Source: an uncultured Candidatus Saccharibacteria bacterium (GTDB lineage Bacteria; Patescibacteriota; Minisyncoccia; Phycocordibacterales; UBA9973). From it: a DNA stretch of 51,381 bases. Made by a program: the position numbers and the translations under genes. The stretch lies in assembly GCA_964362545.1 (NCBI GenBank), contig CAYIEM010000003.1, forward strand, positions 1-51,381. Reading direction: 5' to 3'. The notes beneath the pieces are model-generated. The model did not search any database. It was not told where the DNA came from and saw only the letters and a program-made list of their open reading frames with translations. Below are positions 17,746 to 45,059 of this stretch, piece by piece (the stretch's first letter is position 1; the number at the start of each line of letters is the position of its first letter).

Positions 17746-18846
17746 CTATATCCCCTCTTTTTTGAGTTGTTCGACTAGCTCGCGGGATTTGTGAGATAAT
17801 TTTCCCGGAAGTTTTATTTTTAGTTTGATTAGCAAATCCCCTCGCTTGCTTTTTGAAGAAGGCACACCGTGTCCCTTCACGCGAAGAATTTCGCCCACAG
17901 ATACCCCTTCCGGAATTTTAACTTTTATTTCACCATCCAGAGTTTTTATAGCGTATTCCGTACCCAAGAGAGCATCTGAGAGTCTCAAATCCAAATTCAT
18001 TACCAGATCATTGCCATCCCTTTTAAACACCGCGTGTGCTGCGACATTTACTTTTATATACAAATCGCCAGATGTTCCCCTTGATACTGCTTCACCCCCA
18101 CCCGTCATCCTTATCATTTCGCCATCTCGCATTCCAGCTGGCACATTTATAGTTATTTCTTCCTCGCGTCGAAATACTCCTTTGCCTTTACATGTCTCGC
18201 ATTTTTCTTTTGGTACCTCTCCCGCGCCAAGACATTCCTCGCAAGTTTTTGTGCTTGAAATAGTTCCTAAGATTGTTCTTTTGGCTTCACGGATTTTTCC
18301 CTGACCGTTACAATACTTACAAGTTTCCATCTTCGTACCTACCTTTGCCCCGGAACCACTGCAGGCAAAGCAATTTGAAGTTTTGGTGATTAAAATTTTC
18401 CTGCTTACTCCAAATACAGATTCAGCGAAAGAAATTTGAATCTCGGTGGAAATATCGCGCCCACGCCTCGCTTCCCTTCTGCCTCCCCCCATTCCTCCCG
18501 TAAAAAAGTCACTAAAAATGTCGTTTAAGTTTCCGAAATCAAAATCAGCACTCCCATTCTGAAAACCAGAAAAATCGAAACCAGAAAAGCCCTGCTGTGA
18601 GCCACCGAAGCCCCCGGCGGAGGCGCTTCCCATATTTTCAAAACCAGAGCCAAATTGATCGTATTTTGAGCGTTTAGTGTCATCAGAAAGCACCTGATAA
18701 GCTTCGTTTACTTGTTTAAATTTTGCTTCATTCCCCTCTTTTTTATCCGGATGGTATTTGTGCGCCAATTTATAAAAAGCCTTTTTAATTTCGTCCTTAG
18801 AAGCGCCTTTATTTACGCCCAAAATTTCATAGTAATCTTTTGACAT
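17746..18846 (-). CDS. dnaJ: Chaperone DnaJ
   Basis: J domain with HPD, G/F region, four CxxCxGxG repeats. Confidence 0.97.
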
Positions 18847-18870
18847 ATTTTTATTTTACTTGGCTTGCCA

Positions 18871-20367
18871 TTATATCATGGGCTCAGCTTCCGCGGCAAC
18901 TTTAGTTTGCCCGACTCCCCCAGTACCTTCTTCATTCGTCCCTTCGCTACCCTCCTCTTTTTTTCCTTTACCTTCAATGATCGCTTTCTCCTCCGCGCTT
19001 CTGATAATCGTCGCTTCTTCTTCAGCTATGAGTTTAGCCGCATCATCTCTCGATATCGAAAACTTTCTGCGAGAAGAGGCAATAATATTTTCCCTATACG
19101 ACGGGTGTGTAGGTGGTAGAACCCTCAAGGTCTCAGCAGAGAACGGATCGTAGGATTCACCATCGATTGTCATTTTGACATAAAATTCCGCAACTGCTAG
19201 GTTGATCATGTCTTTCACATCGAACAGTGGCGCAAATTCCGGCTTCATTTTCACCGCGTCTTCTCCACCGATGCGGAAAGTAATGATACTACCGCAATTA
19301 CCCAAGACCGCTTGGTGAACTTTGGGCAAAATTTGTCCCACATATTGATGCGCCATTGTTAAGTTTAATCCGTATTTTCTGGCCTCTGACAAAATATTTT
19401 CGAAAGTTTGCGTAACCACGTTTTGAAACTCATCCACGTATATATAAAAATCTGTACGATCTTTTTCTGGGATTGCCGCACGTTCCATTCCCGCCTGTTT
19501 TATTTTTGTCAAAAATATTGAACCAAGAAAAGATGAATTTTCTTCTCCGAGACGACCCTTTGAAAGATTAATAAGAATGATTTTCCCTTCATTCATCAAT
19601 TTGCTTATGTCTATTTTATTTTGCTTTTGACCGAAAATGTTTCGAAGTAGCGGATCGGATAAAAACTGCCCAAGTTTGTTTACGAGCGGAATGATAGCAT
19701 CCGTGTCAAATTTCTCCGACCAGTCGGCAAACTCGATAGCGAAGAATCTTTTAACCATATCATCCGTAATATATTCCACTACTTTTTGTCTATAATTTCT
19801 ATCAGTAAGCATTGAGATCATCCCGCGCATAGTAGCATGCGGATAGTCAAGGAGCGCCAAGCAAGTAAAACGAAAAACGTGTTCAAGTCTTGGCGTCCAG
19901 TTGGCTCCGAATTGTTTTTGAAAAACTTCAATCAATCCTTGGGTAAGTTGGAATTTAAACATTGGATCCACATTTGCTAGCGGATTGAATGATGCCGGAA
20001 AATCAATATCAGGAGGATCTATAATGCATACATCCTCAATGCGCTCTTCTGGAATGTAATCAAGCATAGCCTCTATGACATCCCCGTGCGGATCAATTAG
20101 ACATAAACCGTGGTTATATGTTATGTCTTGTCGCAAAAAAAGCTCTAGTAATTTTGTTTTTCCGACGCCAGACTTTCCGATAATATACAGATGTCTACGT
20201 CTATCGACGCGCTTAATACCGAAAATAAATTTTTTTTCTTCCAGAGAAGCGACGTAGTTAGTACGTCCGATGAAAGAAACATCTTCGGGTTTTACCTTTC
20301 CAAAAACAGGCAATTCTGGTGGAGGCGGACCATATTTGATTATTTGAACTCGATTTGGCTTCGGCAT
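18871..20367 (-). CDS. VirD4/TraD-HerA superfamily (DUF87-like) P-loop ATPase
   Basis: DRRRHLYIIGKSGVGKT Walker A, IDPHGD, SFNPL, YIYVDEFQN Walker B, SEARKYGL...AHQY. Confidence 0.85.
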   Translation of the reverse strand: MPKPNRVQIIKYGPPPPELPVFGKVKPEDVSFIGRTNYVASLEEKKFIFGIKRVDRRRHLYIIGKSGVGKTKLLELFLRQDITYNHGLCLIDPHGDVIEAMLDYIPEERIEDVCIIDPPDIDFPASFNPLANVDPMFKFQLTQGLIEVFQKQFGANWTPRLEHVFRFTCLALLDYPHATMRGMISMLTDRNYRQKVVEYITDDMVKRFFAIEFADWSEKFDTDAIIPLVNKLGQFLSDPLLRNIFGQKQNKIDISKLMNEGKIILINLSKGRLGEENSSFLGSIFLTKIKQAGMERAAIPEKDRTDFYIYVDEFQNVVTQTFENILSEARKYGLNLTMAHQYVGQILPKVHQAVLGNCGSIITFRIGGEDAVKMKPEFAPLFDVKDMINLAVAEFYVKMTIDGESYDPFSAETLRVLPPTHPSYRENIIASSRRKFSISRDDAAKLIAEEEATIIRSAEEKAIIEGKGKKEEGSEGTNEEGTGGVGQTKVAAEAEPMI

Positions 20368-20402: not shown

Positions 20403-21599
20403 TCAATATAAATGTTGGGTATTTTGATACAAGCCTTTTCTATATTTCCGAGCCACATAAAAATACACCGGCAAAAGAGCTGAAAAAAACAAGACTCCTA
20501 AGAGCAGAAAACCATATTGATAAGACAAGCGTTCAATCAAAACACCTAAAACAAAACTAAAAAACGCCGTAGCCACGTGTTCTATTTGCTTACCGACGGA
20601 AAGCAAGGTAGCTTTAAACTTGCTGGATTTTATAACCTCAAGCTGATATCCCTCGTCTATTTTAGATAACCCCCAAAAGAAAGCGTTAACAATAATAAAA
20701 ACAGCGACTATGATCCGTGCGTCGGAAGTAATCGCCAATATGGCCATGAAAACAATATACAAAACAAGCTGAATTCTGAAAAACGAAAGCATTGTTAGGA
20801 ATTTTTTAATTCTGCCTGAAAAATAAAGCATCATTGAAGCAAGTCCCCTGCCTAGGCCAAAGAAAACTCCATACCAAATGACTGGTATCTCAAGAAAAAC
20901 TTGATACGGGGCGCGAAAAGCCCCTATGGCAAACAATGTTCCGCCCACAATTCCAGAGAAAAGAGCTACTGAGAAATAGTTAAGCTTTGTGGCTTCCTGT
21001 AATACTTGTCTAAAATTTGTCACTCGTATTTCTTCTGTCTCTTCTTGCGACACCATCGGAGTAACCAAGGAAATCGCAGAAATCAAACCTACCGTATCAA
21101 TCACTAGGGACACAATAAAAGGAAGTTTGTAGCTTATTCCAACCAAAAAAGGAATGAACACTGCCAGTGCCGCCGGTATAGCGAAACCTATAGCACTCGC
21201 TTTACCCATTACCTTAGAGTAATCACCTTCTCTGCCTAAACTTCTTAAAGTCTCATGCATAAAAGCGCTGCCCGTGCCAGAAATAAAAGCATGCCCCGCA
21301 CTTAAAAATACAGATCCGAGTACCAAAAGAAAGGTATTTTTGGCAAGAATAAAAAGGAGTGTTGAAAAGAAGAGAAGTGTAAAAGACAAAATAATTGTCT
21401 TTTTATGTCCGAGTTTATCTGAAGCGTATCCACTCGGAATTTCAAACAAAAAACCGGAAAGGCTCCCAGCCAGTGTGATCATTCCGATAACTTTGGCTGT
21501 AACATCTGGTATGGTAAGAAAGTATGCCCCCAAGATAGCTATGAAAACTCTTTTGTTTGATACCAAAAGAAGAGTGTATTTCCAAAGATTGCCTTTCAA
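20403..21599 (-). CDS. MFS transporter
   Basis: About 12 TM segments; FEIPSGYASDKLGHK motif A. Start uncertain: TTG 21599, or an out-of-frame GTG at 21613. Confidence 0.88.
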   Translation of the reverse strand: MKGNLWKYTLLLVSNKRVFIAILGAYFLTIPDVTAKVIGMITLAGSLSGFLFEIPSGYASDKLGHKKTIILSFTLLFFSTLLFILAKNTFLLVLGSVFLSAGHAFISGTGSAFMHETLRSLGREGDYSKVMGKASAIGFAIPAALAVFIPFLVGISYKLPFIVSLVIDTVGLISAISLVTPMVSQEETEEIRVTNFRQVLQEATKLNYFSVALFSGIVGGTLFAIGAFRAPYQVFLEIPVIWYGVFFGLGRGLASMMLYFSGRIKKFLTMLSFFRIQLVLYIVFMAILAITSDARIIVAVFIIVNAFFWGLSKIDEGYQLEVIKSSKFKATLLSVGKQIEHVATAFFSFVLGVLIERLSYQYGFLLLGVLFFSALLPVYFYVARKYRKGLYQNTQHLY

Positions 21600-28663: not shown

Positions 28664-30840
28664 TTATTCCAGAATTTTACGCAAAACATCTTCAGGTACT
28701 TCTTTAATTTTTGTTTTTGGTGTTTGCGCTGGTACAGGTGTAACAACCGGCTCTGGTTTAAATTCGGGCTCGGGTTCAGACTCGGGCTTAGGTTCTGGTT
28801 TGGGTTCTGGTTTGAATTCGGGCTCTGGCTGTTTTGGTTCGGGCTCGTGTTTTTTGACTTCACTAGCGCCACCTGCGACTATGCTTGTTGTCTCAATAAA
28901 ATTCTTCAACTTATTCATGTCTTCGACACTTGCCGCGCGATCTTTCGTTAACTTGTCTTTAGAAAATAAAGCGGGAGAAGTCCTAATATCACCACCCAAC
29001 ACGCTAAGTGGCACGGGAGAAGGAATATCAGGAACAGAAGGAGCGACACCCGGCACAGGAGAGGTTGATACGTTAAGCGTTTTACTTAAAACTTCTCTTA
29101 ATGCCAAATTCTCCCCGCCCACACGACTGGGCTTTGCGTTATCCTTGGTAAATACTTTTTTAATTCTGGAAAACAAGGGAATCTTTTTATCAAATTCTTT
29201 GGAAACAGGTTTGTCAATTCTCTCCGGATATCTTTCCGGCTCTATGTTTTTATGCTTATCCTCTGGCCTATTCACTACTGTATTACTCGAAGGGAATTCT
29301 ATTCCTAAGTCCGCTAGTGGTTTTACAAATTTGGCTTCATCACGTTTTATTTGTTTTATCGAACCGCTGATTGGTTTTATTTCACCGGATTTTATCTTGG
29401 CTATGCAATCCTTACAGTACACCGGCCTATTTGCCTCCGGCTTAAAAGGCACCATCGTATCTTTTTTACAAACGGAACACTTGGCTTCAAATTTTCCTGC
29501 GTCGGCCGAATCGCCATTATTACCCCCGAGCAACATTCCGCTCCAATCATTTATTTCTCGCTCCACTACTTCTCTCGGCCTGCAATACAAATCGCGGGAC
29601 GATTTAATAACTTCTTCCTCGATTTTCTTGTCGCCTGATTTTACTATCGGCGGAAGAGTCTTGGCAGAAAAAGGACGAGAAGACACTCCGTCTATCATTA
29701 GTTTTAGATAGACTTTATAGTTCGGCAAGTTCACGATGTCCTGCGGGGTAAATTCCGGCTCGAATTCTTTTTCCAAAAACTCCGCGTCGTCAGCGCCCAC
29801 GCGAAACACTATCATGGTGCCGACGTTTCCGAAAATAGCGTCTCTCACGCTAGAATCTTTGTCGGCGATAAGCTGGGCTGTGTACTGATGCGCCACGGTA
29901 AGGTTTAATCTGTATTTCCTCGCCTCGGAAAGTATTCCGGCAAAAGCCTCCGTTACGAAATTCTGGAATTCATCTACATAAAGGTAAAAATCTTTCCTCT
30001 CCGCTTCCGGAATGCGCACTCGCTCCATCGCCGCAAGCTGTATCTTGGTGATTATCATTCCGCCCAAGAGAGATGAATTATCCTCGCCAATGCGCCCTTT
30101 GGAGACGTTCACTAAAAATATCTTTCCTTCGTTCATTATGTCGAACACGTTGATGGTGCTTTTGGACTGACCGACAATGTTTCTTATAATGGAAGTAGAT
30201 AAGAACTGTCCGACTTTGTTTTGTATCGGCGCAATAGCTTCATTTCTGAACTTATCCTGCCAAGCTTCGTACTCGTGAATCCAAAAAGCTTTATTACCGG
30301 ATCTTTCAGATTGGCTATTATTTTCTGGCGGTAGTCTTTGTCCACCAGCATTCTCGGAATACCGAGCATAGTCGAACCCGGAGTGTCAAGCAACGCCAGA
30401 ATCGCGTTGTTTAAAATATATTCCATTCTGGCACTCCAGGCGTTTGCCCATATCTTAGTAAATATACCCATGAGTCCAGAAGCCACCAGGTGCTTGTATT
30501 TAGGGTCTATAAGCTCTAACACATTAAATCCTATATGATGCTCGCTATCCGCCGGATTGAAATAAACTACGTCTTTCATGCGGTGCGGCGGAATAGCCGA
30601 TAGGATAGCTTCGACATTTTCTCCGTGCGGGTCAACCATACAAACTCCGTCTCCATTTTCTATGTTTTGGACAATCATGTTGAACATCAGCGCAGACTTA
30701 CCTGTACCGGACTTTCCGAGAATATAAACATGCTGACGCCTGTCTTTGCGCTTTATGCCAAAAAGAGTATTTTTATCCCGATAAGTAGTGAGACCAATAT
30801 ACGTAATTTCCTTATTTTTGGGTATCCCCTCTAGTTCCAT
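28664..30840 (-). CDS. VirD4/HerA-like ATPase with CxxC-x17-CxxC domain and Pro/Glu/Lys-rich tail, split by a 1-nt frameshift near 30290
   Basis: Walker A GKSGTGKS is in ORF 30184-30840 and Walker B YVDEFQN in ORF 28664-30148. Shifting frame at ATA AAG CTT restores KAFWIHEYEAWQDKFRNEAIAPIQNKVGQFL, collinear with the 18871 paralogue. Confidence 0.85.
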
Positions 30841-34357: not shown

Positions 34358-34397
34358 AAAGAAACGCAAAAGAAATGTCGACCTGGCAGGTCGACAT
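34358..34397 (-). terminator. Probable dnaK terminator
   Basis: ATGTCGACCT-ggc-AGGTCGACAT (34375-34397) followed on the minus strand by TTCTTTTGCGTTTCTTT. Confidence 0.7.
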
Positions 34398-34418
34398 GTT
34401 TTGGAATTTTTTTAATTT

Positions 34419-36335
34419 TTACTGTTTAGACGCTTCGTCTTCTGGTTTACCACCTTCTTTAAATTCGGCGTCTTTGACCTCTGGTGGTTGTTCTTCGGGT
34501 GTAGAAGATCCTGAGCTAGCTCCAGGATTAGCTCCCGCCTTTTGTATAGCTTCTCCTATTTTAGACATTTCGGCAGAAAGTTCTTCGGTTGCTTTTTTAA
34601 TTTTGTCTATGTCGTCACCATCTTTGGCCCCGCGTAAAGCTGTTATCTTTACATTAACGCTATCTTTTATATCAGCAGGAATCTTAGCCTCATTGTCTTT
34701 CAATGCTTTTTCGGCAGTATATATAATCATCTCAGCAGTGTTTTTGATATCTACATTTTCGCGTTTCTTTTTGTCTTCCTCGGCGTGAAGCTCCGCATCT
34801 TTTTGCATTTTCTCAATATCTTCCTTTTTTAATCCCGAGCTTGCTTCTATTTTTATAGATTGGGCCTTACCGGAAGCTTTATCCATGGCTTTCACATTGA
34901 GTATTCCGTTCACGTCAATATCAAAAGTGACTTCCACTTGAGGCATACCACGAGGCGATGGTGGAATGCCGTCCAATATGAACCTGCCGAGCGATTTATT
35001 GTCGGAAGCCATAGGGCGTTCTCCTTGCACTATGTGAATCTCAACAGAAGTTTGGTTATCAGCCGCAGTTGAAAATACTTGTGATTTGGAGGCCGGAATA
35101 GTGGTGTTTCTTTCGATCAATTTTGTCCCGACTCCACCCAATGTTTCAATACCAAGGGAGAGTGGTATGACATCAAGCAAAAGCACATCTCGCACATCTC
35201 CTGCGAGTACTCCGGCTTGTACTGCAGCGCCTAAAGCCACCACTTCGTCAGGATTGATTGACATATTCGGTGTTTTGCCAAAAAGATTTTTCACCGCTTC
35301 TACTATTGCCGGCATTCTAGTTTGTCCGCCGACCATTATGATTTCATTTATCTCACTCATCTTGAATGGTGAAGCTTCCAGTGCTCTTTTGATAATTTCA
35401 ATAGAGTGGTCTACATATTCTTTCGCCAGACTTTCTAATGTGGCGCGCGACATCTTCAAAAGCAGATGTTTTGGTCCAGAAGAATCAGAGGTGATAAATG
35501 GAATGTTTATTTCTGCTTCCATCGTGGTAGAAAGTTCGTGCTTCGCTTTTTCTGCCGCTTCCTTTAATCTCTGATGAGCAAGCGGATCTTTCCTCACGTC
35601 AATGCCAGATTCTTTTTTGTATTCTTCGGCAATCCAAGCAATGATTTTTCTATCAATATCACCTCCGCCCATGTGACTATCGCCATCTGTTGATTTGACC
35701 TCTATGACATCATCGCCTATCTCAAGAACTGAGACGTCGAAAGTTCCACCACCGAAATCGTAAACGACTATCTTTTCATTTTTCTTTTTGTTAAATCCAT
35801 AAGCAAGTGCCGCTGCGGTAGGTTCATTAATAATACGTTTTACATCAAGACCGGCGATCTGCCCTGCGTCTTTTGTTGCCTTCCTTTGCGCATCATTGAA
35901 GTATGCAGGGACAGTGATCACTGCCTCTGTTATTTTTTCTCCCAGTTTGGCTTCAACGTCGGATTTTATTTTTTGCAAGATCATAGCAGAAATCTCTTCT
36001 GGTCGATAAAATTTATCTGACATCTTCACCTTCACTCCGCCATCTTCGCCACTCTCGATTTTAAAAGGAGCGGTTGATTTATCTTTCTGGACACCTGGGT
36101 CATCGAATCTATGCCCCATGTAGCGTTTTATTTCAGAAATTGTGTTTTCCGGGTTAGTGACTGCTTGCCTCTTAGAGAGGAGCCCGACTATACGATCGCC
36201 ATTTTTTGTTATAGCGACAATGGAAGGCGTAGTGCGATTGCCTTCGACATTTTCAATAATTTTAGGGCTTCCTCCCTCAATGAAGGCAACTGCCGAATTT
36301 GTTGTACCCAAATCTATACCTATTATTTTACTCAT
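34419..36335 (-). CDS. dnaK: Chaperone DnaK
   Basis: [39 protein letters not shown]. Confidence 0.98.
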
Positions 36336-36397
36336 AATTTTTTTGATTTAAATCCCGATCCGATAATCGGGGACTAATAATTAAGTTTAATAAATAC

Positions 36398-36477: not shown

Positions 36478-36483
36478 ATATCT

Positions 36484-37011
36484 ATGTCAAGAAAAACGCC
36501 CCCAAATAGCTATTCTAGCAAGATACTTAATATTTTAGACGGAAAACCAGCGATCCCGCTAGATTCAATAAACAATAACAGAAACACAAAAACGGGTTAC
36601 GCCTTGACTCGTTCAATAAAAAACTTGGTAGAAGCTGGATGTGTAGAGGTAGTTTGCTCAGATAATAAAAGCTATTTAAAATTAACAAAAAAAGGAAAAA
36701 GGAAATTGGATTACATCAAACTCGAAGGCAGTGGCGTCCTCATATCTACTGTCTGGGATGGATTGTGGAGAATTATAATTTTAGATATCCCAGAAGAAAG
36801 GAAAAGTGAACGCGACGCGCTACGCTATCTTCTAAAAAAAGCAGATTTCAAATGTATAAAAAATACTGTTTGGGTATCGCCTCACCCATACGAACACCTT
36901 TTTACAAATATAAAAAAAGATCTGGGACTGGGAACTGAACTCATGATAATAATTACTGATAAGTTAGACGAAAAAACAAAGCTTGCTTTTTTGGAAAGTT
37001 CAAAAAGATAA
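36484..37011 (+). CDS. PaaX-like transcriptional regulator (wHTH plus Cas2-like central domain)
   Basis: LTRSIKNLVEAG.V....LKLTKKG wHTH; WDGLWRIIILDIPEE...RDALR.LL....F..IKNTVWVSP. Confidence 0.8.
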   Translation: MSRKTPPNSYSSKILNILDGKPAIPLDSINNNRNTKTGYALTRSIKNLVEAGCVEVVCSDNKSYLKLTKKGKRKLDYIKLEGSGVLISTVWDGLWRIIILDIPEERKSERDALRYLLKKADFKCIKNTVWVSPHPYEHLFTNIKKDLGLGTELMIIITDKLDEKTKLAFLESSKR

Positions 37012-37023
37012 AATATTTAATTT

Positions 37024-37329
37024 TTAAACAACTTCTTCCATCATCCACTCCTTATAAGCTCTATTTATCCTCCTCACATCTACCCCAGCGATGAGAGGAG
37101 TAGAATAAGAGTGATGGTTAGAAATTAGATCGTTCACAGTCTCCAATTTAGATTCAAAAGTGGCAATAATAAGCATCATTTCGGATATTTTTTTATACTC
37201 GCCCTTCCAATTATACATGGAGTGGATAGGCCAGTAATCTATACAAGCGCCGAGCTTTTGCTCTAAAATTAGTTTCCCTAAACGCTCTGCTTCCTCAGAA
37301 GTCGCGCAAGTCGTGTAAATAAATACCAT
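37024..37329 (-). CDS. cutA: Divalent-cation tolerance protein CutA
   Basis: IYTTC...EEA...G...LGAC, SMYNWKG, HHSYSTP. Confidence 0.9.
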   Translation of the reverse strand: MVFIYTTCATSEEAERLGKLILEQKLGACIDYWPIHSMYNWKGEYKKISEMMLIIATFESKLETVNDLISNHHSYSTPLIAGVDVRRINRAYKEWMMEEVV

Positions 37330-37396
37330 AGAAAAATAATATTCATTATTTTCGACCTTTACTCTATTGTACCACTTTTAGAAAAGCAAGTACACT

Positions 37397-39070
37397 TCAA
37401 TATACTTCCCCCTGGTAACACTTCTCACAATAAATTATTTCAGGTCTCTCCGGAGCATAGGAAGTTTCAAATTCATTGCCGCACCCTTCTTTCATACACT
37501 TCCGGCGCCAAAGTTTGCGGGGCAGTCTGGACATGACCCTCCCTTTGTATCGACAGCTAAAACAAAAATGCGGAATTGGAATGTTTTCACGCTTATAAAA
37601 TGTGAGCTCCGCAGGCACAACATTATAATTTTTTTCACATTTTTCACATTTTAATATCTCTTTGATGATAGAATCCGGGGTATTTTTTATATCGTCTGGT
37701 ATATCCTTCGGTAAAATAGTTTCTTTGCCATAAGTTCCCGGCACATTTTCCTCCCATCGCAAGCCTTTATGCAGAACTTCCTCCTTACTGAGCGGCATGT
37801 ATACTCCAGCATGAGACTCGTTGTACGCGAAAGGTGAAAGTTTGCTTGGAAAAAATTCGCCATACTCTCCTGTTTTTTGCATATGTTCGATAATTTTTTC
37901 TCTTAGTTTCTGATATTCTTCCTTCCCATATTTTTTGTTGAAAACCATATAACTCCCCTTCTTGATGCCACAACACCCGAATAAACTACTGCTGTTATGG
38001 CAAGAATCGCAATACTGTATTTCATTATTGTCGTAAGACAGATGGGTAAATAAGACATTTTGGGAACGAACGATGGCGTGACATTCATACATCAGCTCAC
38101 AATTAAAACCGGCATGATAGACATCCATCGAATCTTTCATGTCGGGAATAATAATCCCGTATTTAGTATTTTCTACTCTGTCTGAATCAAAAACCTGCCG
38201 AGCGTTTCGGGAATTATAAATCATATTACCAGTCGAATTTACAGTATTTTCCATAATGGCAAACTCGTGAATGGCTTTTTCTTCGACTAAGTCTTTAAAA
38301 TCAGCAAACAGTTTTTTTCTTGACTCAAAAGAACCCAAATTGAATTCTTTTATTTTTTCTAAATACTCGTCTCTCCCATATTTTTTATTAAGAATAAGAT
38401 AACTTTGATTTCTTTGGTTGCAGGACAGAAAACAATTCTGGCAATTCGTCATATCGTAACAATAAAGACAATCGGTACAATTCTTCAAAAGAGTGGAAAA
38501 CTGGCAACGATAAATGTCGGAACAATTTATGCATTCATAAGACAAAACGCCGTTTTTCATAATCATGTAGCAATCTGACAAATCTTGACCTTTTTCCCAG
38601 ATATTGTTTGAATACATGATGTTCTCCGAATAAAAAGTGGAGACACTCATATAACAATTTTTATTGTCTCCGGAGTGGTTGGTATATTCTGAATTTACAC
38701 TGTTCTTCGTCAAGAGCGCTATTCTTGGAATTTTGAGTTGCAATTCATGAAATTGTTCAAAAAAGGGTCTGCTGAAATCAAACTCCTGGGTTATTTCCCT
38801 GGCATCCCATCCGTCTCCCCACCAACACGGAGGGCAATAAACTTTGTAGGGGCTTTTAGGAGAATAAATCGTCACGCTACTTTTCCCGCAAAGATCACAC
38901 GGTCTCCTATAGAGTGTAATTTCATTGCGCCAAGCATACCGCCTCTGCTGTCTGCATTCCGGACAAAAGGTCGGAGCCGGCACTTTCATCTTTTCATAAA
39001 ACTTAAAATCCTCCGGCTCGATGATGAAAATTTGTTGACAATTCTTACAATTCTTGGTTTCGCTATGCAT
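37397..39070 (-). CDS. Cys-rich multi-zinc-ribbon protein, paralogue 4
   Basis: Same architecture; start moved to ATG 39070 (MHSETKNC) by alignment with the paralogues. Confidence 0.9.
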   Translation of the reverse strand: MHSETKNCKNCQQIFIIEPEDFKFYEKMKVPAPTFCPECRQQRRYAWRNEITLYRRPCDLCGKSSVTIYSPKSPYKVYCPPCWWGDGWDAREITQEFDFSRPFFEQFHELQLKIPRIALLTKNSVNSEYTNHSGDNKNCYMSVSTFYSENIMYSNNIWEKGQDLSDCYMIMKNGVLSYECINCSDIYRCQFSTLLKNCTDCLYCYDMTNCQNCFLSCNQRNQSYLILNKKYGRDEYLEKIKEFNLGSFESRKKLFADFKDLVEEKAIHEFAIMENTVNSTGNMIYNSRNARQVFDSDRVENTKYGIIIPDMKDSMDVYHAGFNCELMYECHAIVRSQNVLFTHLSYDNNEIQYCDSCHNSSSLFGCCGIKKGSYMVFNKKYGKEEYQKLREKIIEHMQKTGEYGEFFPSKLSPFAYNESHAGVYMPLSKEEVLHKGLRWEENVPGTYGKETILPKDIPDDIKNTPDSIIKEILKCEKCEKNYNVVPAELTFYKRENIPIPHFCFSCRYKGRVMSRLPRKLWRRKCMKEGCGNEFETSYAPERPEIIYCEKCYQGEVY

Positions 39071-39075
39071 ATGGT

Positions 39076-39183
39076 TTAGAAAAGCCTGCGCCACAAAATT
39101 TTAAACCTAAACTTGATTGTCTGCCAAAGCATTATAAAAACATATTTAAAGTACTCTAATTTTGATTTTATTTTCTTGGTCAT
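39076..39183 (-). CDS. Possible 35-aa basic/hydrophobic small protein
   Basis: MTKKIKSKLEYFKYVFIMLWQTIKFRFKILWRRLF fills the gap between paralogues 3 and 4 almost exactly. Confidence 0.3.
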   Translation of the reverse strand: MTKKIKSKLEYFKYVFIMLWQTIKFRFKILWRRLF

Positions 39184-39184
39184 A

Positions 39185-40969
39185 TTACACAAATTCGGCC
39201 TGATAACACTTTTCACAGTATACAATCTCAGTTCTATCTTGGCTAATAGCCGTCTCGAACTCATTCGGACATGTGTCTTTGCCATGCATATGTTCAATGG
39301 TGTTTTTATATAACTTATCTTCTGATTCTACACCGTGACACATACATTTCCTACGCCATAGTTTCGGCGGATTTTTCATTTTAATTCGCTCCCCATAGCG
39401 ACAACTTGGGCATAATCGAGGCAAGGCTACCTGCATAGCCCGAAGAAACTGCAGTTCATTTGAAAGAATCCGGAAAGCGGTAGTGCATTCTTGTTTGCAT
39501 TCTATACCGTTGTGTTCGCATTCTATCACTTCGTTCAAAACAGAATCAGGAACGTCTTTAGTATTGTCTGGTAAATCCCTGGCTTTAATGGTTATTTCAT
39601 AATCTCGGTCTTTTTGCTCATACCAGTTAAAACCTTGAGATAACGCCTCTTCTCTGGTAAGCGGAAAATATTTTTGCGCAACCGTTTCGTTATAAGCCCA
39701 AGGAGAGAAAACACTTGGGAAAAATTCTCCGTATTTGTAAACTCTTCCTTTTCTATCTACATAAGAAATATTAAGTATTTGTTGTTTTATTTTGGGCAGT
39801 ATATCTTTATATTCTTGTTCACTATATTGTTTGTTTAAAATACAATATTTTTTGTTTCTTATTTCTGTGCAACCAAAAACATAAGAACAGTTATAAACCT
39901 TATGAGAATACTCGACTTCTTGGGAATCATGACATGCGCGGTTAAATAAACTTCGTCTGGATTTAATACATCCGTTAGTTTCATAAATCAATTCGGACAT
40001 ATCACCACCGTAAGTCACATCGTGACTGTCCTTTAAAAGTAGTCCGCCAAGATGCACATACTTGCAGTTTTCCACACCATTAAGAGCAGAAAAACAAACC
40101 TTGCAGTTCTTTGCGTTTTTTATATCATCTCCTGAAACGTTTGTAGAATTAGTTATAGAAGCAAATCTCCTTGGTGTTTTGTAATAAAGTTCAAAAAATT
40201 TATTTTTAATTTCTTGAATGGTTTTGTAACTTCCCAAATCAAACTTTTCTATCTCTTCCTTGTATTCTTCTTTTGTATATTTTTTGTTAAAAATACAGTA
40301 TTTTTGATTTCTTAGATTTATGCAACCGAAACAATCCGAACACCCTATGCAGTTAAAAAGAAAAGAGGAGTCTAGACATTCATCTGAAAAATAAACAAAC
40401 TTGGTATTATAGACTCCAGTAGAATAAAGTGTTTCATAAACGTGATCGGCATTCCAAGTACCATCAGAATCCATAGAGTTACGAGTAAAAACCGGAACTT
40501 GGCAATTAAAACAATCAGCGGACTCAAAACCGTCAAAACAAAGTGTTAAGTTTTTGCAACGCATATTGCCATTTGAATACGTACAATCTACTGAGTTTTT
40601 TTGAGCTGTTGATTGGTGTGGGACGACTCTCACCAACTCGTTGAATTGTTCGAAAAATGACTTGGAAAAATCATACTCCCTACCGTAATCTGTCGCATCC
40701 CAGCTGTCTCCCCACCAGCAGGAGGGACAATACACAACAAGCTTTTTTTCTCTACTATAGATGCTGATAATTTCTTCGCCACATTTATCACATTTATCCT
40801 TATATAAAGGCCTATCTTCACGAAAAGCAAGCCGTCGTATGAGTCTGCACTCCGGGCACCACGTCGGCGGAGGAACTTTCATTTTTTCGTAAAAGTTAAA
40901 ATCTTCAGATTCTATCGTGAAGTCTTTTTTACAGTTTTGACATATTCGATTTTCACTTTTATTTTCCAT
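39185..40969 (-). CDS. Cys-rich multi-zinc-ribbon protein, paralogue 3 (His/Cys insert subtype)
   Basis: Same architecture plus CMC...YKNTIEHMHG..C insert. Confidence 0.9.
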   Translation of the reverse strand: MENKSENRICQNCKKDFTIESEDFNFYEKMKVPPPTWCPECRLIRRLAFREDRPLYKDKCDKCGEEIISIYSREKKLVVYCPSCWWGDSWDATDYGREYDFSKSFFEQFNELVRVVPHQSTAQKNSVDCTYSNGNMRCKNLTLCFDGFESADCFNCQVPVFTRNSMDSDGTWNADHVYETLYSTGVYNTKFVYFSDECLDSSFLFNCIGCSDCFGCINLRNQKYCIFNKKYTKEEYKEEIEKFDLGSYKTIQEIKNKFFELYYKTPRRFASITNSTNVSGDDIKNAKNCKVCFSALNGVENCKYVHLGGLLLKDSHDVTYGGDMSELIYETNGCIKSRRSLFNRACHDSQEVEYSHKVYNCSYVFGCTEIRNKKYCILNKQYSEQEYKDILPKIKQQILNISYVDRKGRVYKYGEFFPSVFSPWAYNETVAQKYFPLTREEALSQGFNWYEQKDRDYEITIKARDLPDNTKDVPDSVLNEVIECEHNGIECKQECTTAFRILSNELQFLRAMQVALPRLCPSCRYGERIKMKNPPKLWRRKCMCHGVESEDKLYKNTIEHMHGKDTCPNEFETAISQDRTEIVYCEKCYQAEFV

Positions 40970-40976
40970 TTTTTCT

Positions 40977-41022
40977 TTAATTTGCTAGATTTTCTGCTAT
41001 CGCAGAAAATCTAGCAAATTAA
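40977..41022. repeat. Perfect 21-bp-arm inverted repeat between paralogues 2 and 3
   Basis: TTAATTTGCTAGATTTTCTGC-tatc-GCAGAAAATCTAGCAAATTAA; includes the stop codon of paralogue 2. Confidence 0.88.
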
Positions 41023-42722
41023 TACACCTCCTGATTGTAACATCTCTCACAGTAGATGATTTCTGGTCTATCAGGAGCATAAGAGGTTTCAAATTCATTG
41101 GAGCAATCTGGTTTCATACATTTCCTGTGCCAAAGTTTCCTCTGATTACGCAACTTGAATCTATCTTGTCTTCGACACGGAAAACATTTTTCGGGAATGG
41201 GGATATTAAGAATTTTATATAGAGATAATTCGAGCGGCGTTATTTTAAACGCAGTAGCGCACAAAGAATAATTCTCGGTATCTTTCTCGGAAAGTTGCAT
41301 AGAACACTGTATAGTCTCATCTACGATATTGTTTGATGTCTCTTCCAGCGTTCTTGGCAAATCTTTCGAGAAAATAGTTGTTTTGTAATCTCGAACCGGT
41401 CTGTCGTACCACAAATATCCTTTTTGTGTAACTTCTTCCCTTGTAAGTGGAAAATAATCCATTGCCATCGATTCGTTGTAAGCAAATGGAGAAAATCTCA
41501 CGGGAAAATATTCACCCCATTCTTTTGTCTTTCTCATATGCTCAATAATTTTTTCCTTTAACTTGACATATTCTTCTTTAATGTACTGTTTGTTTAAAAT
41601 ACAGTATTGTTTTTGTTTAAGGCCGAAGCATCCAAAACAGTCCTGAACACCAAAGCACATATCGCAATAACAAGAATTTGTGATGGTGCTCGTGCAACTT
41701 CTTGCCACAATAGTTTTATATGGAGAATCCACACCTTGAATTTCATACGAGAGCTGACCTTTATCGATTTCTGTACAATCTCTACAATCTTCGGTCTGCA
41801 ACCAAGCATCTTGCATATACGCAGTATCTTTATGGTCTCGGCAATTAAATAATAAACGGGAACGTTCCATGTTTTCCATATAATCACCCGTAGAATTTTC
41901 TGCGCGTGAACCGTGGTAATACTTAAAGGGAAATTTTAGTCTAATAAGCCCAGATTTCTTTTTTGCATCATGAATGGATTGTCTATCCCATATAAACGAG
42001 TTAAATTTTTTCTTATATTCTTCCTTCGTTAATTGTTTATTAAACCAATAATTACTTTTGTTTCTTATACTCACGCACCCGAAACAATCAGTGCATCCTT
42101 TGCAATCGTTACTAAAATACATATTCACACAGTCAGAGCAATCTTGAGACCAGGCACAATGAGAACACTTCGTTAGGTTTATACATTCATAACAATATTC
42201 ACTTTTTTGTACCATGTAGCAATCAGAACAGAAAAAACTACTTTCATGCCAACTTCCGTACATACATTTCTCACAATTCCCACTGGTAACTAGCATATAG
42301 CAATCCTTATTGTCTTGTGATTGGTTAGTGTATTCACTATTAATACTGTTCGAATTAACCATAGCGATGTGGGGAACCACGGAACGAAGTTCTTCAAATT
42401 GTTCAAAAAATGGTCGTGACAAATCAAAATCTCTTCCATATTCCGTGGCATCAAATTTATCCGATTTCCAATATTCCTGTTTGTATACTGGGAATAAAAC
42501 GTCATCTCTGTAAATAGAAATTACATCCCCGCCGGTCGCATCACATTTTCTTTTATAAAGATTATACTCGTTGCGATCCAAAAGCCTACGTATGTAGCGA
42601 CATTCCGGACAAAGCGTCGGCGGAGGCACTTTCATTTTTTCATAAAACTTAAAATCCTCCGGCTCGATGGTGAAATCTTTTTTACAATTCTGACATATTC
42701 GATTTTCTATACCTTTATTCAT
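41019..42722 (-). CDS. Cys-rich multi-zinc-ribbon protein, paralogue 2
   Basis: Same architecture; ends EIIYCERCYNQEVY. Confidence 0.9.
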   Translation of the reverse strand: MNKGIENRICQNCKKDFTIEPEDFKFYEKMKVPPPTLCPECRYIRRLLDRNEYNLYKRKCDATGGDVISIYRDDVLFPVYKQEYWKSDKFDATEYGRDFDLSRPFFEQFEELRSVVPHIAMVNSNSINSEYTNQSQDNKDCYMLVTSGNCEKCMYGSWHESSFFCSDCYMVQKSEYCYECINLTKCSHCAWSQDCSDCVNMYFSNDCKGCTDCFGCVSIRNKSNYWFNKQLTKEEYKKKFNSFIWDRQSIHDAKKKSGLIRLKFPFKYYHGSRAENSTGDYMENMERSRLLFNCRDHKDTAYMQDAWLQTEDCRDCTEIDKGQLSYEIQGVDSPYKTIVARSCTSTITNSCYCDMCFGVQDCFGCFGLKQKQYCILNKQYIKEEYVKLKEKIIEHMRKTKEWGEYFPVRFSPFAYNESMAMDYFPLTREEVTQKGYLWYDRPVRDYKTTIFSKDLPRTLEETSNNIVDETIQCSMQLSEKDTENYSLCATAFKITPLELSLYKILNIPIPEKCFPCRRQDRFKLRNQRKLWHRKCMKPDCSNEFETSYAPDRPEIIYCERCYNQEVY

Positions 42723-42728
42723 ATCAGT

Positions 42729-42780
42729 ATTTAAATCATGATTTAAATCAGTACATCCAATCTACGCCATGACGTAGATT
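42729..42780. repeat. Two adjacent palindromes upstream of paralogue 2
   Basis: ATTTAAATCA|TGATTTAAAT (42729-42748) and AATCTACG-ccatga-CGTAGATT (42759-42780). Confidence 0.8.
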
Positions 42781-42784
42781 AAGT

Positions 42785-44446
42785 TCAGGCTATGTTTTGT
42801 TTGTAACATTCCTCACAGGCTATTTTTTGATAATTCCATTCGGGAAGATAGTAAGCTTCTATATTTTTCTTACAGTAAAAACAAACATATGAATATGATT
42901 GCAAAACAGTGAGGTACTTCAAGCGACCTTTTGTGCGAACATCAAAATGCTTGCGCGGTAGAGGAATATTATTTTCCCTATAAAAAGAAAGCTCGTTTTG
43001 GGCTATATTAAAACGCCAGCCAGTCTCCGGACAAATAAGAGCTTTTGTTGTGATATCGTTAGAAACATCTTTTATATCATCAGGCAATTCACTGGCAAGC
43101 ATTCCCTCTATGTTGCCTTCATCTATATCTTCCCAATAACCACCAAGTCTTAAAATATCTTCTTTTTTGGTCTCCGAAAAGTACGGAAAACCAGTGGAAA
43201 AGTTAAAGGGTCCAGCGCTCATAGCATACGGCAGAAATTGCCCGTACTCTCCTCTTTTTCTCATACCAGAAATAATTTCACTTTTTAGGTCCTCATATTC
43301 TTCCTTTGTATACTGTTTATCTAAAATGCAATATTTCTTTTTCTTTAGACCCACGCAACCAAAACAATATTCGCACTCAAGGCATAAGTCTAAATATTCC
43401 GAATATCGCGAGGAAGACCAAACTGAGTATTTAAGAGCAAAAGAATTAACACAATCAGCGCAGTTCCCTATCAATTCAGAATACCAGCAACCATTGGCGT
43501 CAATAGTTGATTTTTCGCGCATGGCTCTAATACAGTTAAAACAATCTTCGGAATCGTTGATGGTGTTGCAGTTGTGGCAATCTTTTACGTTTATCAGATA
43601 ATTGCCACTGGCGTTATATGCTTTTAGATTAAAATTTTCCCTATGCACTACTTCTTTTTGGGCTATTTCTTCAAAGCATTTTTTATGAACCTGAATAGAA
43701 GGGTATGACCCCAGATCAAATGACTTTAATTTTTCTTGATATTCTTCTCTCCCATACTCAACATTTTCTATGCAGTAAGATTTCCCTCGCAAGTTCCAGG
43801 ACATAAAGCAATTTTGGCAGTTGCGACAATCATATAAAAAATAGGAGTCTATGCAATCCCGAGAATGTTGGGAGTAAAAAAGTTTGTAGGAGTGGTGACA
43901 ATCCGAGCAGTCGTAACATTTTTCACAATTGAAACAAATTGTCACGTCTATAGAATTCTTGACCCTTATGTTTCTATACGAATAATATAAATCCTCGCAT
44001 TCTTCCATAGAACGAGAGAGGTAACAGTTTTTAGAATTCCAGACATCATCGCACCAATCACATCCTGTATTTTTACTGCCATTTTGATGTGGGTGAGGAA
44101 TTTTCTCTTGGAGAGTTTGTAGTTGTTTAAAAAAAGGCAATTCAGGGTTATAGTCCATGCCAAAATTCATTGCATCCCATTTGTCACTGTGCCATTCAGA
44201 AAGGGTATATATCGGGTATCTATTTTTTTCTGGCAAGACTGTAATTAAACTCTCCCCCGATAGATCAGATTTGCCTTTGCGAAACTTGCCAAACATCCAA
44301 AAAGACAAGTGGAGTTTGATACGACAGTCACGGCAAATTGTTGGCAATTCAATCTCAACCTTTTTATACAAAGACAACTCCCCCTCAGTTATACTGAATT
44401 CTTTTTTACAATGTTCGCAAGTTTTATTTTGCTTCTGTGGGTCCAT
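42785..44446 (-). CDS. Cys-rich multi-zinc-ribbon protein, paralogue 1 (divergent, overlaps grpE)
   Basis: Start moved to ATG 44446 (MDPQKQNKTCEHC); same overall architecture with a degenerate second knuckle. Confidence 0.88.
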   Translation of the reverse strand: MDPQKQNKTCEHCKKEFSITEGELSLYKKVEIELPTICRDCRIKLHLSFWMFGKFRKGKSDLSGESLITVLPEKNRYPIYTLSEWHSDKWDAMNFGMDYNPELPFFKQLQTLQEKIPHPHQNGSKNTGCDWCDDVWNSKNCYLSRSMEECEDLYYSYRNIRVKNSIDVTICFNCEKCYDCSDCHHSYKLFYSQHSRDCIDSYFLYDCRNCQNCFMSWNLRGKSYCIENVEYGREEYQEKLKSFDLGSYPSIQVHKKCFEEIAQKEVVHRENFNLKAYNASGNYLINVKDCHNCNTINDSEDCFNCIRAMREKSTIDANGCWYSELIGNCADCVNSFALKYSVWSSSRYSEYLDLCLECEYCFGCVGLKKKKYCILDKQYTKEEYEDLKSEIISGMRKRGEYGQFLPYAMSAGPFNFSTGFPYFSETKKEDILRLGGYWEDIDEGNIEGMLASELPDDIKDVSNDITTKALICPETGWRFNIAQNELSFYRENNIPLPRKHFDVRTKGRLKYLTVLQSYSYVCFYCKKNIEAYYLPEWNYQKIACEECYKQNIA

Positions 44447-45059
44447 TGTATTCAAAAACATTGACTCGGGCCGCTCGAAGAACATTGTGCCCCAGCTTGT
44501 ATCCCTTTTGAATTACATCAGAGACTTTATGGTTTTCTTTGATTTTGTCAGTCGGGGTCATCTCTATGGATTGATGAATGTTCGGATCGAAATCCTCGCC
44601 AACTTTTCCTATTTCTTTCACTCCATATTCCTCAAAAATAGCACTGAGTTGAGTATAAATATATTCAACTCCTTTGCGCCAATTTTCATCCACCTTGTTC
44701 CATGTGTCTTTATTGGAAAAAGCCATATTAAAACTATCAAGTACCGTTAAAAACCTAGTAAGTATGTGCTCTCGCATCGATTCCGATAAGTTGGCTCTTC
44801 TGTCATCTTCTTGTTTTTTGTAATTGACAAAATCTGCACGCTCCTTTTGCCAACCATTTAAGTACTCCTCTTTTTCGGCAATACAGCGTTTTAAATCAGC
44901 CCTGAGTTTCTTGAGAGTCTTTTTCAGGTCTTCCTCTCCATCTTCATTAAATTCAAATAATTCAACAGAATCATCTCGAGTATCTTCGAGGGATTCAACA
45001 ACCTCTGAGTCTTCAGGTTCAGACGCAGTGTCATCTTCTTTTTTTTCTTCTTCATCCAT
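44424..45059 (-). CDS. grpE: Nucleotide exchange factor GrpE
   Basis: RADFVNYKK, LTVLDSF, FDPNIHQS, QKGYKL...LRAARV. Confidence 0.96.
   Translation of the reverse strand: MDEEEKKEDDTASEPEDSEVVESLEDTRDDSVELFEFNEDGEEDLKKTLKKLRADLKRCIAEKEEYLNGWQKERADFVNYKKQEDDRRANLSESMREHILTRFLTVLDSFNMAFSNKDTWNKVDENWRKGVEYIYTQLSAIFEEYGVKEIGKVGEDFDPNIHQSIEMTPTDKIKENHKVSDVIQKGYKLGHNVLRAARVNVFEYNGPTEAK

Follow-up and report, generated by a model that had tools for sequence, protein, structure and literature searches.

A cysteine-rich protein family and its association with soluble VirD4-like ATPases in an expanded dnaK locus of Patescibacteria

Introduction

Why should a very small genome yet hold 4.6% of its DNA in a single unannotated protein family, and why should members of that family fill a chaperone operon? 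The question is raised by contig CAYIEM010000003.1 of assembly GCA_964362545.1, a stretch of 51,381 nucleotides that is called the window here (contig C3). The genome, labelled G000 in the following, comprises 821,712 bp in 46 contigs and is scored as 100% complete; it belongs to a groundwater bacterium, public groundwater sequencing runs yielding contigs that match the window. Positions 17746–45059 hold 19 genes, all but one on the minus strand, which include grpE, dnaK and dnaJ, two VirD4/HerA-like ATPases (A and B) and ten cysteine-rich paralogues, P1 to P10. An earlier reading of the letters, made without database searches and referred to below as the sequence-only reading, had taken this arrangement for a candidate undescribed system.

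Such heavy investment and turnover are usually a sign of genes that act where a cell meets its host, a virus or its environment, and the biology of this contact is the chief open question about these largely uncultured episymbionts. Across the phylum, the neighbour that recurs beside the P genes is a VirD4-like ATPase, and it appears reasonably probable that the P proteins work with such ATPases. A further step is tentative, at a probability of roughly 0.3: the P proteins may represent a diversified repertoire of ATPase clients that are exported through a type IV secretion system (T4SS). Confidence is high for the description of the locus and the family, and low for any function.

Ten paralogues and two ATPases in one locus

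The ten P open reading frames (ORFs) are intact and co-oriented on the minus strand, and sum to 5,692 aa or about 17.1 kb. The sequence-only reading had listed ten intact Cys-rich paralogues in a given gene order and of about 17 kb in total, and all of these ORFs were found in their places. Ten is the number in the locus but not the whole family, which has 23 ORFs in the genome plus a remnant. The two VirD4/HerA-like ATPases of that reading are supported by Pfam and, for ATPase B, by fold, but ATPase A is split by a frameshift in the assembly. The genes of the family and the two ATPases are as follows.

P1: 42785..44485, minus strand; the most divergent paralogue within the genome, yet the one kept between genomes
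P2: 41019..42722, minus strand; paralogue of 567 aa
P3: 39185..40969, minus strand; paralogue of 594 aa
P4: 37397..39094, minus strand; paralogue of 565 aa, GTG start
P5: 32592..34328, minus strand; paralogue of 578 aa, GTG start that fits the N-terminus of the family
P6: 30869..32536, minus strand; paralogue of 555 aa
ATPase A: 28664..30840, minus strand; soluble NTPase of VirD4/TrwB type that has a zinc finger as well as a tail rich in Pro, Glu and Lys (Pfam, NCBIfam)
P7: 26844..28619, minus strand; paralogue of 591 aa
P8: 25098..26783, minus strand; paralogue of 561 aa
P9: 23384..25048, minus strand; paralogue of 554 aa
P10: 21658..23343, minus strand; paralogue of 561 aa, the one modelled
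ATPase B: 18871..20367, minus strand; short soluble ATPase of type IV coupling protein (T4CP) fold, 498 aa, without a zinc finger (Pfam, AlphaFold2, Foldseek)

The P proteins are 554–594 aa long and share a pairwise identity of 28–54% (median 39%), with 28–40 Cys each (4.9–7.0%). A profile of the family matches every one of the ten copies at E 1e-222 to 1e-262, far beyond chance.

A VirD4-like ATPase as the recurrent neighbour

Gene neighbourhoods were compared at 78 loci around family members, taken from one genome per species across GTDB; the loci were ranked by similarity to P1, so that P1-type genes are over-sampled, and related genomes among them are not independent. At least two P ORFs are held by 58 of the loci (11 in 21 kb at locus L091), and 248 of the 254 P ORFs lie on one common strand. 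The largest cluster of non-P genes encodes a VirD4-like ATPase, found in 33 of the 78 loci by neighbour clustering and, by a stricter tally, in 32 of the 78 and in 29 of the 55 loci of at least 12 kb. The ATPase ORFs are co-oriented with P in 41 of 42 cases, at a median distance of 66 bp from the nearest P ORF. Given two to three ATPase genes per genome of about 0.7–0.8 Mb, an ATPase would roughly be expected by chance in fewer than 10% of 20-kb windows.

The sequence-only reading had tied the family to chaperones and to a translocase-type ATPase. The ATPase part of that view stands in these loci, but grpE, dnaK or dnaJ is present in only 16 of the 78, and 23 loci carry the ATPase without a chaperone gene, many of them labelled Peregrinibacteria, Peribacteria, Abawacabacteria or Gracilibacteria. 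As a general rule, chaperone linkage fails. Five P-positive genomes from four other families have P and ATPase B at a distance of 45–680 bp (G173, G137, G102), 7.7 kb (G134) or 10.3 kb (G311), that is, within 11 kb in all five, and dnaK within 10 kb of P only in G102. Five closed or near-closed genomes without P have dnaK either on a different contig from the ATPases or 20 kb or more away from both of them, and the ATPase–dnaK link therefore appears only in genomes where P is or was present. Judged from gene order, the core association is that of P with the ATPase, and in this lineage and some others the module is housed in the chaperone operon.

The same pairing is seen in a sample of 301 genomes of the class. 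ATPase homologues as such are near-universal (296 of 301 genomes, usually two copies at about 38–46% identity). Of the class genomes, 40, with G000 among them, encode a separate short orthologue of ATPase B, of about 490 aa and at least 60% identity. Related genomes in this sample are not independent, and the co-occurrence given below is no formal test.

B-type ATPase and P both present: 35 class genomes
B-type ATPase present, P absent: 5 class genomes (G203, G268, G065, G163, G108)
B-type ATPase absent, P present: 5 class genomes (G073, G097, G154, G210, G314; three at most 84% complete)
B-type ATPase and P both absent: 256 class genomes

The seven other genomes of this order in the class sample lack both the B-type ATPase and P. 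Among 21 P1-type genes tabulated, six directly follow grpE, five a B-type ATPase, five another P gene and five some other gene or nothing; P1 orthologues in other genomes accordingly stand directly 3' of grpE or of a B-type ATPase.

Besides the ATPase, neighbour clustering of the 78 loci returned only TrmB-like, ABC-transporter and housekeeping genes, with no nuclease, Sir2, TIR or other effector domain. In Peregrinibacteria-type loci, P arrays are interrupted by TrmB-family winged helix-turn-helix (wHTH) regulators of about 250 aa, 24 ORFs in all at 14 of the 78 loci (among them L055, L070, L071, L077, L079 and L057); 16 of these ORFs adjoin a P gene, and eight of the 16 are divergent at the head of a P run. 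A divergent TrmB-family wHTH regulator also lies upstream of the P copy on contig C18 of G000 (C18:11263-12042).

The expanded dnaK operon

An expansion of the grpE–dnaK–dnaJ locus had been proposed from the window by itself, and the congeners of G000 bear it out. In about 10 kb, the P-less G203 and G268 hold grpE, (cutA), an oppositely oriented PaaX-like gene, dnaK, both ATPases (A, then B) and dnaJ; cutA is included in the compact form seen in G203. G006 and G012 share this backbone, and theirs contains P genes, at the three sites that are also occupied in G000. Because the first two genomes hold a compact P-less backbone and the other two a P-filled one, the G000 locus is truly expanded. 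Its transcription order is grpE, P1–P4, cutA, a divergent PaaX_M-domain gene, dnaK, P5–P6, ATPase A, P7–P10, an MFS gene, ATPase B and dnaJ, with gaps of 12–148 nt between genes, and rpoA, rplM and rpsI directly adjoin grpE upstream. The remaining features of the window, with flanking genes identified by Pfam and NCBIfam profile matches, are listed below.

grpE: 44424..45059, minus strand; ORF and translation, orthologues 60–74% identical in G006, G012, G203 and G268; the 3' end overlaps P1 by 62 nt
cutA (CutA1 family): 37024..37329, minus strand; Pfam CutA1, E 1.2e-26
Small regulator-like protein with a PaaX_M domain, 175 aa: 36484..37011, plus strand; Pfam PaaX_M, E 5.9e-19, divergent from dnaK
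dnaK: 34419..36335, minus strand; orthologues 74–93% identical across the genus
Hairpin: 34375..34397, minus strand; perfect 10-bp stem with a T-rich stretch behind it, located after the dnaK stop and before the P5 start
MFS transporter: 20403..21599, minus strand; Pfam MFS_1, E 8e-18
dnaJ: 17746..18846, minus strand; orthologues in related backbones
Decayed P gene remnant: about 49411..49625 (upper end approximate), minus strand; profile positions 506–555, three stops

The hairpin behind dnaK may be an attenuator or terminator that partly uncouples the downstream P and ATPase genes from dnaK transcription; a scan of 34000–47500 for promoters and terminators was at chance level (41 against 37.4 expected; hairpins 9 against 9.1 expected). 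The PaaX_M gene belongs to the backbone, being found in G006, G012, G203 and G268, and an N-terminal HTH is hinted at by sub-threshold matches alone (DUF4364, E 6e-4; TIGR02277 PaaX, far below its cut-off). At least seven further PaaX_M-type paralogues were located in G000 by tblastn (contigs C4, C5, C7, C12, C14 and C31), one of them 4 kb from a third ATPase gene, and the small regulator-like PaaX_M proteins are thus also an expanded family in this genome. The MFS gene has no match in the related backbones of G006, G012, G203 and G268. Elsewhere, cutA lies inside or beside P/ATPase modules in six of the 78 loci (L035, L036, L040, L050, L064, L101).

Within the genus, at least 18 of 24 congeners have a P match within 10 kb of dnaK among the matches listed (87 matches stand outside the list). 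These 18 include G019 and G002, whose single match is full-length; G018 has a single weak P match, whose place is not listed, and one congener gave no dnaK match. Such proximity could suggest that the actual partners of P are the DnaK system and CutA, the P proteins serving as zinc or redox buffers or as co-chaperone-like holdases and the ATPases being mere neighbours. The overlap of P1 with the 3' end of grpE, the six of 21 P1-type genes that directly follow grpE, the recurrence of cutA and the 28–40 Cys per protein would all be in keeping with a role in proteostasis or metal handling. Outside this lineage, however, dnaK is unlinked (16 of 78 loci; one of the five P-positive genomes of other families), and a metal buffer needs neither a diversified middle nor 23 distinct old subfamilies. 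P also has neither a J-domain nor similarity to the DnaJ zinc finger: alignment of the P profile with the DnaJ of the window by hhalign gave E 0.12 and a probability of 0.5% over 13 columns, on which the idea of a DnaJ-like finger was rejected. Nor is there an obvious chaperone gap to fill, as G000 encodes a ClpB-like protein (1190.9 bits, just under the cut-off of 1232 bits) and ClpP (over its cut-off). We consider a proteostasis or metal-handling role distinctly improbable. The presence of the ClpB-like gene and ClpP also led to rejection of the idea that the ATPases replace a missing ClpB/Clp system; Lon was not found in G000 with TIGR00763.

The ATPases

In the assembly, ATPase A consists of two ORFs of 218 aa (30184–30840) and 494 aa (28664–30148), separated by a one-base frameshift at a short homopolymer (30283–30292). 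Contigs from runs X1, X3 and X5, not X2, carry an extra T behind position 30289, which restores a single ORF of 725 aa. Going by these contigs, the gene is not dead, and its break reflects either an error of assembly or a minor variant. Walker A and B motifs are intact in both proteins (GKSGTGKS and VDEF in A, GKSGVGKT and VDEF in B). ATPase B and the N-terminal ORF of A pass the Pfam thresholds of DUF87, TrwB_AAD_bind and T4SS-DNA_transf, and ATPase B and the C-terminal ORF of A that of TraG-D_C, while all NCBIfam conjugation models stay far below their cut-offs for both ATPases. ATPase A has in addition a CxxC-x17-CxxC finger (TIGR04272, 49.8 bits against a cut-off of 36; Pfam zf_Tbcl_2, E 5e-12, 45.7 against 27), which aligns weakly with finger 2 of P (hhalign E 0.0059, probability 6%).

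The AlphaFold2 model of ATPase B (predicted local distance difference test, pLDDT, 86.4) contains a helical block at residues 135–245 that resembles the all-alpha domain of coupling proteins. Its best Foldseek match is TrwB (E 4e-14, TM-score 0.64, about 420 alignment columns), followed by HerA, Cag-beta and DotL, and the HerA structures near it include anti-phage HerA complexes. PADLOC gave weak matches of the ATPases to mad8 (2e-11) and to HerA models. A predicted complex of ATPase B (residues 1–438) with P10 scored 0.00 in two runs that had no controls, and counts neither for nor against binding.

Related ATPases vary outside the motor domain. Those in the arrays of other classes have about 750 aa and a soluble N-terminal extension of about 300 aa, without a finger; in Peregrinibacteria-type proteins this extension showed no similarity to P (hhalign E 0.1) and no Pfam match. 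A third ATPase of G000, of 920 aa and with a long N-terminal extension, is encoded at C5:18226-20988 (L126:6226-8988) in the cluster secY / PaaX-like / adk / adk / amino-acid-kinase-family gene / map / ATPase / ABC1 kinase. A VirB4-like ATPase is present above its curated cut-off at C10:4931-6562. A published study (PMC12102498) counts 5,713 VirD4-type homologues in 2,918 Patescibacteria genomes and places no more than 148 of these near virB4; its authors state that epibiotic growth of one cultured species did not require the homologue, and they raise exaptation as a possibility.

Architecture of the P proteins

The ends of the P proteins are conserved and their middle has diverged, as had been noticed in the window: the mean share of paralogues with the commonest residue is 0.55–0.77 at the ends versus 0.33–0.53 in the middle. 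The claim that they lack a signal peptide and a membrane helix also held, no 19-residue hydropathy window above 1.6 being found in any of the ten, against 92 such windows in the MFS control. Cys columns kept in at least seven of the ten paralogues number 24, of which 16 make up four CxxC...CxxC sets, in P10 numbering:

Finger 1: Cys 10, 13, 38, 41; CxxC-x24-CxxC
Finger 2: Cys 60, 63, 81, 84; CxxC-x17-CxxC
Finger 3: Cys 479, 482, 507, 510; CxxC-x24-CxxC
Finger 4: Cys 529, 534, 552, 555; Cx4C-x17-CxxC

Scanned as separate pieces, finger 1 resembles zf_Tbcl (E 0.005) and finger 4 zf_Tbcl_2 (E 0.0026), both below threshold. Because of these piece scans and of the spacing, both ends can be said to carry the same pair of treble-clef-type fingers. 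Individual copies have lost Cys from finger 2 (P1, P2, P7) or from finger 3 (P1, P8). The finger modules are mildly basic, with a net charge of +0 to +9, and Arg-rich stretches adjoin the terminal fingers. In the middle, the motif CF.C..LR...YCI.NKQY.KEEY followed by a helix occurs twice, once after each of two variable, Cys-studded repeat regions, which indicates an internal duplication. The net charge of the repeat regions is merely -5 to +4, and the idea of a DNA mimic was rejected on that account.

The sequence-only reading had spoken of a variable solenoid, of which the variable middle was recovered but the solenoid is only weakly supported by the model of P10. This AlphaFold2 model, built from a 75-sequence alignment, is confident overall, with a pLDDT of 85.8 and a predicted template-modelling score (pTM) of 0.86. 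It is less confident in its two Cys-studded middle regions (about 120–235 and 270–380), where pLDDT is 62–85, and a range of 62–77 applies to its middle. The sole structural neighbours of the middle are beta-solenoids (LpxA, LpxD, GlmU, gamma-carbonic anhydrase and antifreeze proteins), at noise-level scores. Foldseek of the whole model against the PDB returned nothing at E <=1e-3 (best E 0.1, TM-score <=0.1), comparison by VIA with 48,161 chains gave Z 2.2–3.6 (at best 3.6, with a root-mean-square deviation of 3.0 over 124 residues), and a BFVD search of the model gave no match. On the predicted model, the repeat regions may be beta-solenoid-like, and the overall fold as modelled has no solved counterpart.

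That the family is uncharacterised was likewise upheld by the Pfam, NCBIfam, PADLOC and PDB scans made. Whole-protein scans of four of the ten paralogues (P1, P3, P7 and P10) against Pfam and NCBIfam gave nothing above threshold, and neither these nor the scans of separate pieces returned a hexapeptide-repeat match in Pfam. PADLOC (PADLOC-DB 2.0) recognised no family in P5 and P10, two of the ten paralogues, and a PDB sequence search with the 75-sequence profile, in which all ten are included, found nothing meaningful (best E 0.034).

Few variants of this architecture were met. A search for longer relatives gave one protein of 1,727 aa (P0121, on a 9-kb contig) and no informative domain fusion; this single ORF looks like about three fused or read-through copies, judged by its length and score alone. 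In G173 (C2:225403-227204 and C1:268429-270247) and G311 (C12:26118-27880), the C-terminal double-finger is an ORF of its own right after a truncated P body, covering profile positions of about 455–555. Unless these separate ORFs are frameshifts, their arrangement suggests that the C-terminal double-finger module is autonomous.

Distribution and evolution of the family

G000 contains 23 P ORFs, 21 full-length and two cut by contig ends, which occupy 37,662 nt or 4.58% of its DNA. Beyond the genome, the ten-sequence profile recovered 3,220 proteins at E <=1e-3 among 5,596 candidates. Among the 120 matches listed, any source name is "hypothetical", "uncharacterised" or uninformative (most are unnamed), none has a Pfam domain, and the sources named are Nomurabacteria, Paceibacterota, Staskawiczbacteria, Minisyncoccia and "Patescibacteria group". 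When the representatives of 1.84 billion clusters were searched exhaustively with HMMER, 5,339 of them matched at E <=1e-3, 3,822 at <=1e-10 and 2,266 at <=1e-30, so that the family numbers at least 5,339 clusters at 50% identity. All P records with a usable label are Patescibacteria. Two loci with typical P arrays are labelled Burkholderiales (L106, which also has ATPase A, ATPase B and dnaJ) and Woesearchaeota (L082); these labels are probably binning or naming errors and not occurrences outside Patescibacteria, and many "uncultured Candidatus Saccharibacteria" labels in third-party annotation (TPA) records look equally unreliable. The occurrence of the family by rank, where the figures for congeners (0–26) are profile matches per genome and not exact copy numbers, is:

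Genus, first draw: family in 24 of 24 genomes, 1–26 matches each
Genus, later draw: family absent from two more congeners (G203, G268), both complete
Other families of the order: family in 0 of 16, one genome per family
Class: family in 40 of 301 genomes, at least 13 families
Phylum: family in 21 of 401 genomes, 19 of them from other classes; as many as 35 first-look candidates in one genome

Orthologues are few even between close relatives. In G006, whose DnaK is 91% identical, clear orthologues exist for P1 (78%) and P3 (65%) alone, and in G012 for P1 (71%), P2 (66%) and P4 (57%) alone, P1 orthologues thus being 71–78% identical in the two genomes; the other copies match at 34–47%. This scarcity points to a high turnover of P between congeners. 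Relatives of P5 (78%), P10 (74%), P6 (72%) and P4 (63%) occur in other organisms, and the closest pair within G000 is 62% identical. Taken together, the comparisons of identity argue for birth-and-death evolution of old subfamilies and not for hypermutation. With paralogues at <=62% and orthologues at 57–78% identity, synonymous sites are too diverged for a ratio of nonsynonymous to synonymous substitutions (dN/dS). The remnant at 49.4 kb consists of an N-terminal piece (about 20 aa) and a C-terminal finger piece in different frames and with stops, and, as read from these, is direct evidence of gene loss in the family. A mobile-element or phage origin was set aside: neither 50,697 phage records nor 72,556 plasmid records gave a tblastn match to P10, which is weak evidence given that these collections hold few or no Patescibacteria elements.

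Outside the ten of the window, the 13 other copies of G000 are scattered, singly or in small groups, among housekeeping genes such as those for ArgRS, thymidylate kinase, CCA-adding enzyme and methionine aminopeptidase, with no chaperone or ATPase nearby. Their placement would suit stand-alone zinc-finger regulators or nucleic-acid binders, for which the neighbourhood in a compact genome is a matter of operon hitch-hiking, without any tie to ATPases or chaperones. Four terminal fingers with Arg-rich stretches nearby would equip the P proteins for such a task, and genomes of this kind have few classical regulators. However, the adjacency to the ATPase at short gaps recurs across classes, the B-type ATPase co-occurs with P, and 29 of 55 loci with an ATPase against a rough expectation below 10% is hard to obtain by chance; besides, 570 aa with two large Cys-rich repeat regions would be unusual in a simple regulator. 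We regard stand-alone regulators as improbable.

Possible roles of the P–ATPase module

In the reading that we favour, the P proteins would be clients or adaptors of soluble ATPases of the TrwB/VirD4 fold, their conserved finger ends serving as a common handle and the variable middle giving each copy a target of its own. ATPase B, as a coupling-protein paralogue that travels with the family, would present P proteins to a monoderm-type T4SS encoded elsewhere in the genome, and the exported proteins would form a diversified set delivered to the host cell. Expression within the DnaK operon, where this lineage has placed the module, would supply the chaperones that keep P proteins of 30–40 Cys competent.

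Several observations weigh against this proposal. The P proteins are braced by at least four predicted zinc sites, and T4SS passage would need unfolding or a metal-free state; in the model, their C-terminus is a folded finger, net acidic, and not an unstructured signal, and an enzymatic or toxic domain was not detected in them. A membrane anchor is absent, as neither ATPase B nor either piece of ATPase A has a 19-residue hydropathy window above 1.6 (MFS control, 92). The ATPases on C3 and C5 and virB4 on C10 are not near each other, with the physical distance not fully known in an assembly of 46 contigs, and VirB4, present in 291 of 301 class genomes, is no discriminator and was dropped as one. 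That the third ATPase lies among housekeeping genes may mean that ATPases of this type have a core role in the cytosol. ATPase B is intact and 88–89% identical in the P-less G203 and G268, and its function therefore cannot depend wholly on P. The 13 scattered copies of G000 and the over-sampling of P1-type genes in the 78 loci count in the same direction.

Alternatively, the P proteins may stay inside the cell as a cytosolic recognition repertoire, variable sensors or adaptors that load targets, either foreign nucleic acid or proteins, onto a hexameric ATPase for surveillance, defence-like functions or the handling of DNA or RNA, with no export. The ATPases are soluble and lack an anchor, the structural neighbours of ATPase B next after TrwB are HerA translocases including anti-phage complexes, and weak PADLOC matches to mad8 and HerA were obtained. 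Finger modules of this kind often occur in nucleic-acid binders, and those of P are mildly basic. Variable copy number among congeners (0–26 matches) and wHTH regulators interspersed in arrays are also consistent with a cytosolic repertoire. In contrast, the arrays contain and adjoin no nuclease, Sir2, TIR or other effector domain by neighbour clustering, P5 and P10 match no PADLOC family, many copies reside in housekeeping operons and not in islands, and the subfamilies are old and conserved and not rapidly diverging. We hold a cytosolic repertoire without export tentatively at most.

The broadest claim that could be made, a doubtful one at this stage, is that the P family and its dedicated soluble coupling-type ATPase constitute a previously unrecognised ATPase-coupled recognition system of Patescibacteria. 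It would combine an invariant scaffold of four zinc fingers with a binding surface that has diversified into as many as dozens of old subfamilies in a genome of 0.6–1.4 Mb, and a hexameric motor would load P for injection into the host or for survey of the cytoplasm; as such it would be a major and hitherto unseen determinant of the episymbiotic lifestyle. Export would make the P proteins the first large effector repertoire of Patescibacteria; retention inside the cell would make them a new kind of ATPase-coupled recognition module. In the P family, the "orphan" VirD4-like ATPases noted before in Patescibacteria, roughly two per genome and without an assigned role, have a first genomic partner, and ATPase B with a P1-type protein defines a concrete, expressible pair for biochemical and structural work.

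Comparison with known systems

Among characterised proteins, the type IV coupling proteins (TrwB of R388, VirD4, Cag-beta and DotL) are like the ATPases of the locus in their P-loop domain of FtsK/HerA/VirD4 type, in Walker A and B and, for ATPase B, in the all-alpha-like insertion. Canonical coupling proteins have a transmembrane anchor, whereas ATPases A and B have none and are not next to virB4 or a relaxase; ATPase A differs further by its additional CxxC-x17-CxxC finger and its long Pro/Glu/Lys-rich tail. The anti-phage HerA ATPases and mad8 of MADS belong to the same P-loop translocase superfamily as ATPase B. Unlike those systems, the P loci have no partner effector (nuclease, Sir2), and P, scanned as P5 and P10, matches no PADLOC model.

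T4SS effector repertoires with coupling-protein adaptors exist, such as the Legionella Dot/Icm substrates with DotL-IcmSW. The likeness to such repertoires lies in many diversified paralogues without a signal peptide, variable in number and tied genetically to a coupling-type ATPase. The P family differs by the soluble ATPase, by folded zinc-finger ends in place of disordered signals and by the lack of a recognisable enzymatic domain.

For the fingers of the locus, the proteins to compare are the CxxC-x17-CxxC proteins (TIGR04272; PF23477, zf_Tbcl_2). ATPase A is above threshold for them, and P fingers 2 and 4 share their spacing (finger 4 as a Cx4C variant), the P fingers remaining below the Pfam threshold at E 0.0026 to 2.4. 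In a study of Methanosarcina mazei (PMC12704099), two small CxxC-x17-CxxC proteins bound zinc by inductively coupled plasma mass spectrometry. The M. mazei proteins are small and single-domain, whereas P has about 570 aa, four fingers and a large middle. The beta-solenoids (left-handed beta-helix acyltransferases, gamma-carbonic anhydrase, and insect and plant antifreeze proteins) are the sole neighbours of that middle, at the noise-level scores given above; insect antifreeze solenoids are also Cys-rich.

A protein atlas contained only unnamed clusters and one zf_Tbcl lead at 0.83. No description of the P family or of the P–ATPase module was found in full-text literature, and the family may be an anonymous member of published cluster catalogues of the candidate phyla radiation (CPR), whose supplements lay outside that search. 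The kinds of parts are known, namely treble-clef fingers, a possible solenoid and a coupling-type ATPase; what is new is the P family, its combination of folds and its pairing with a dedicated soluble coupling-type ATPase.

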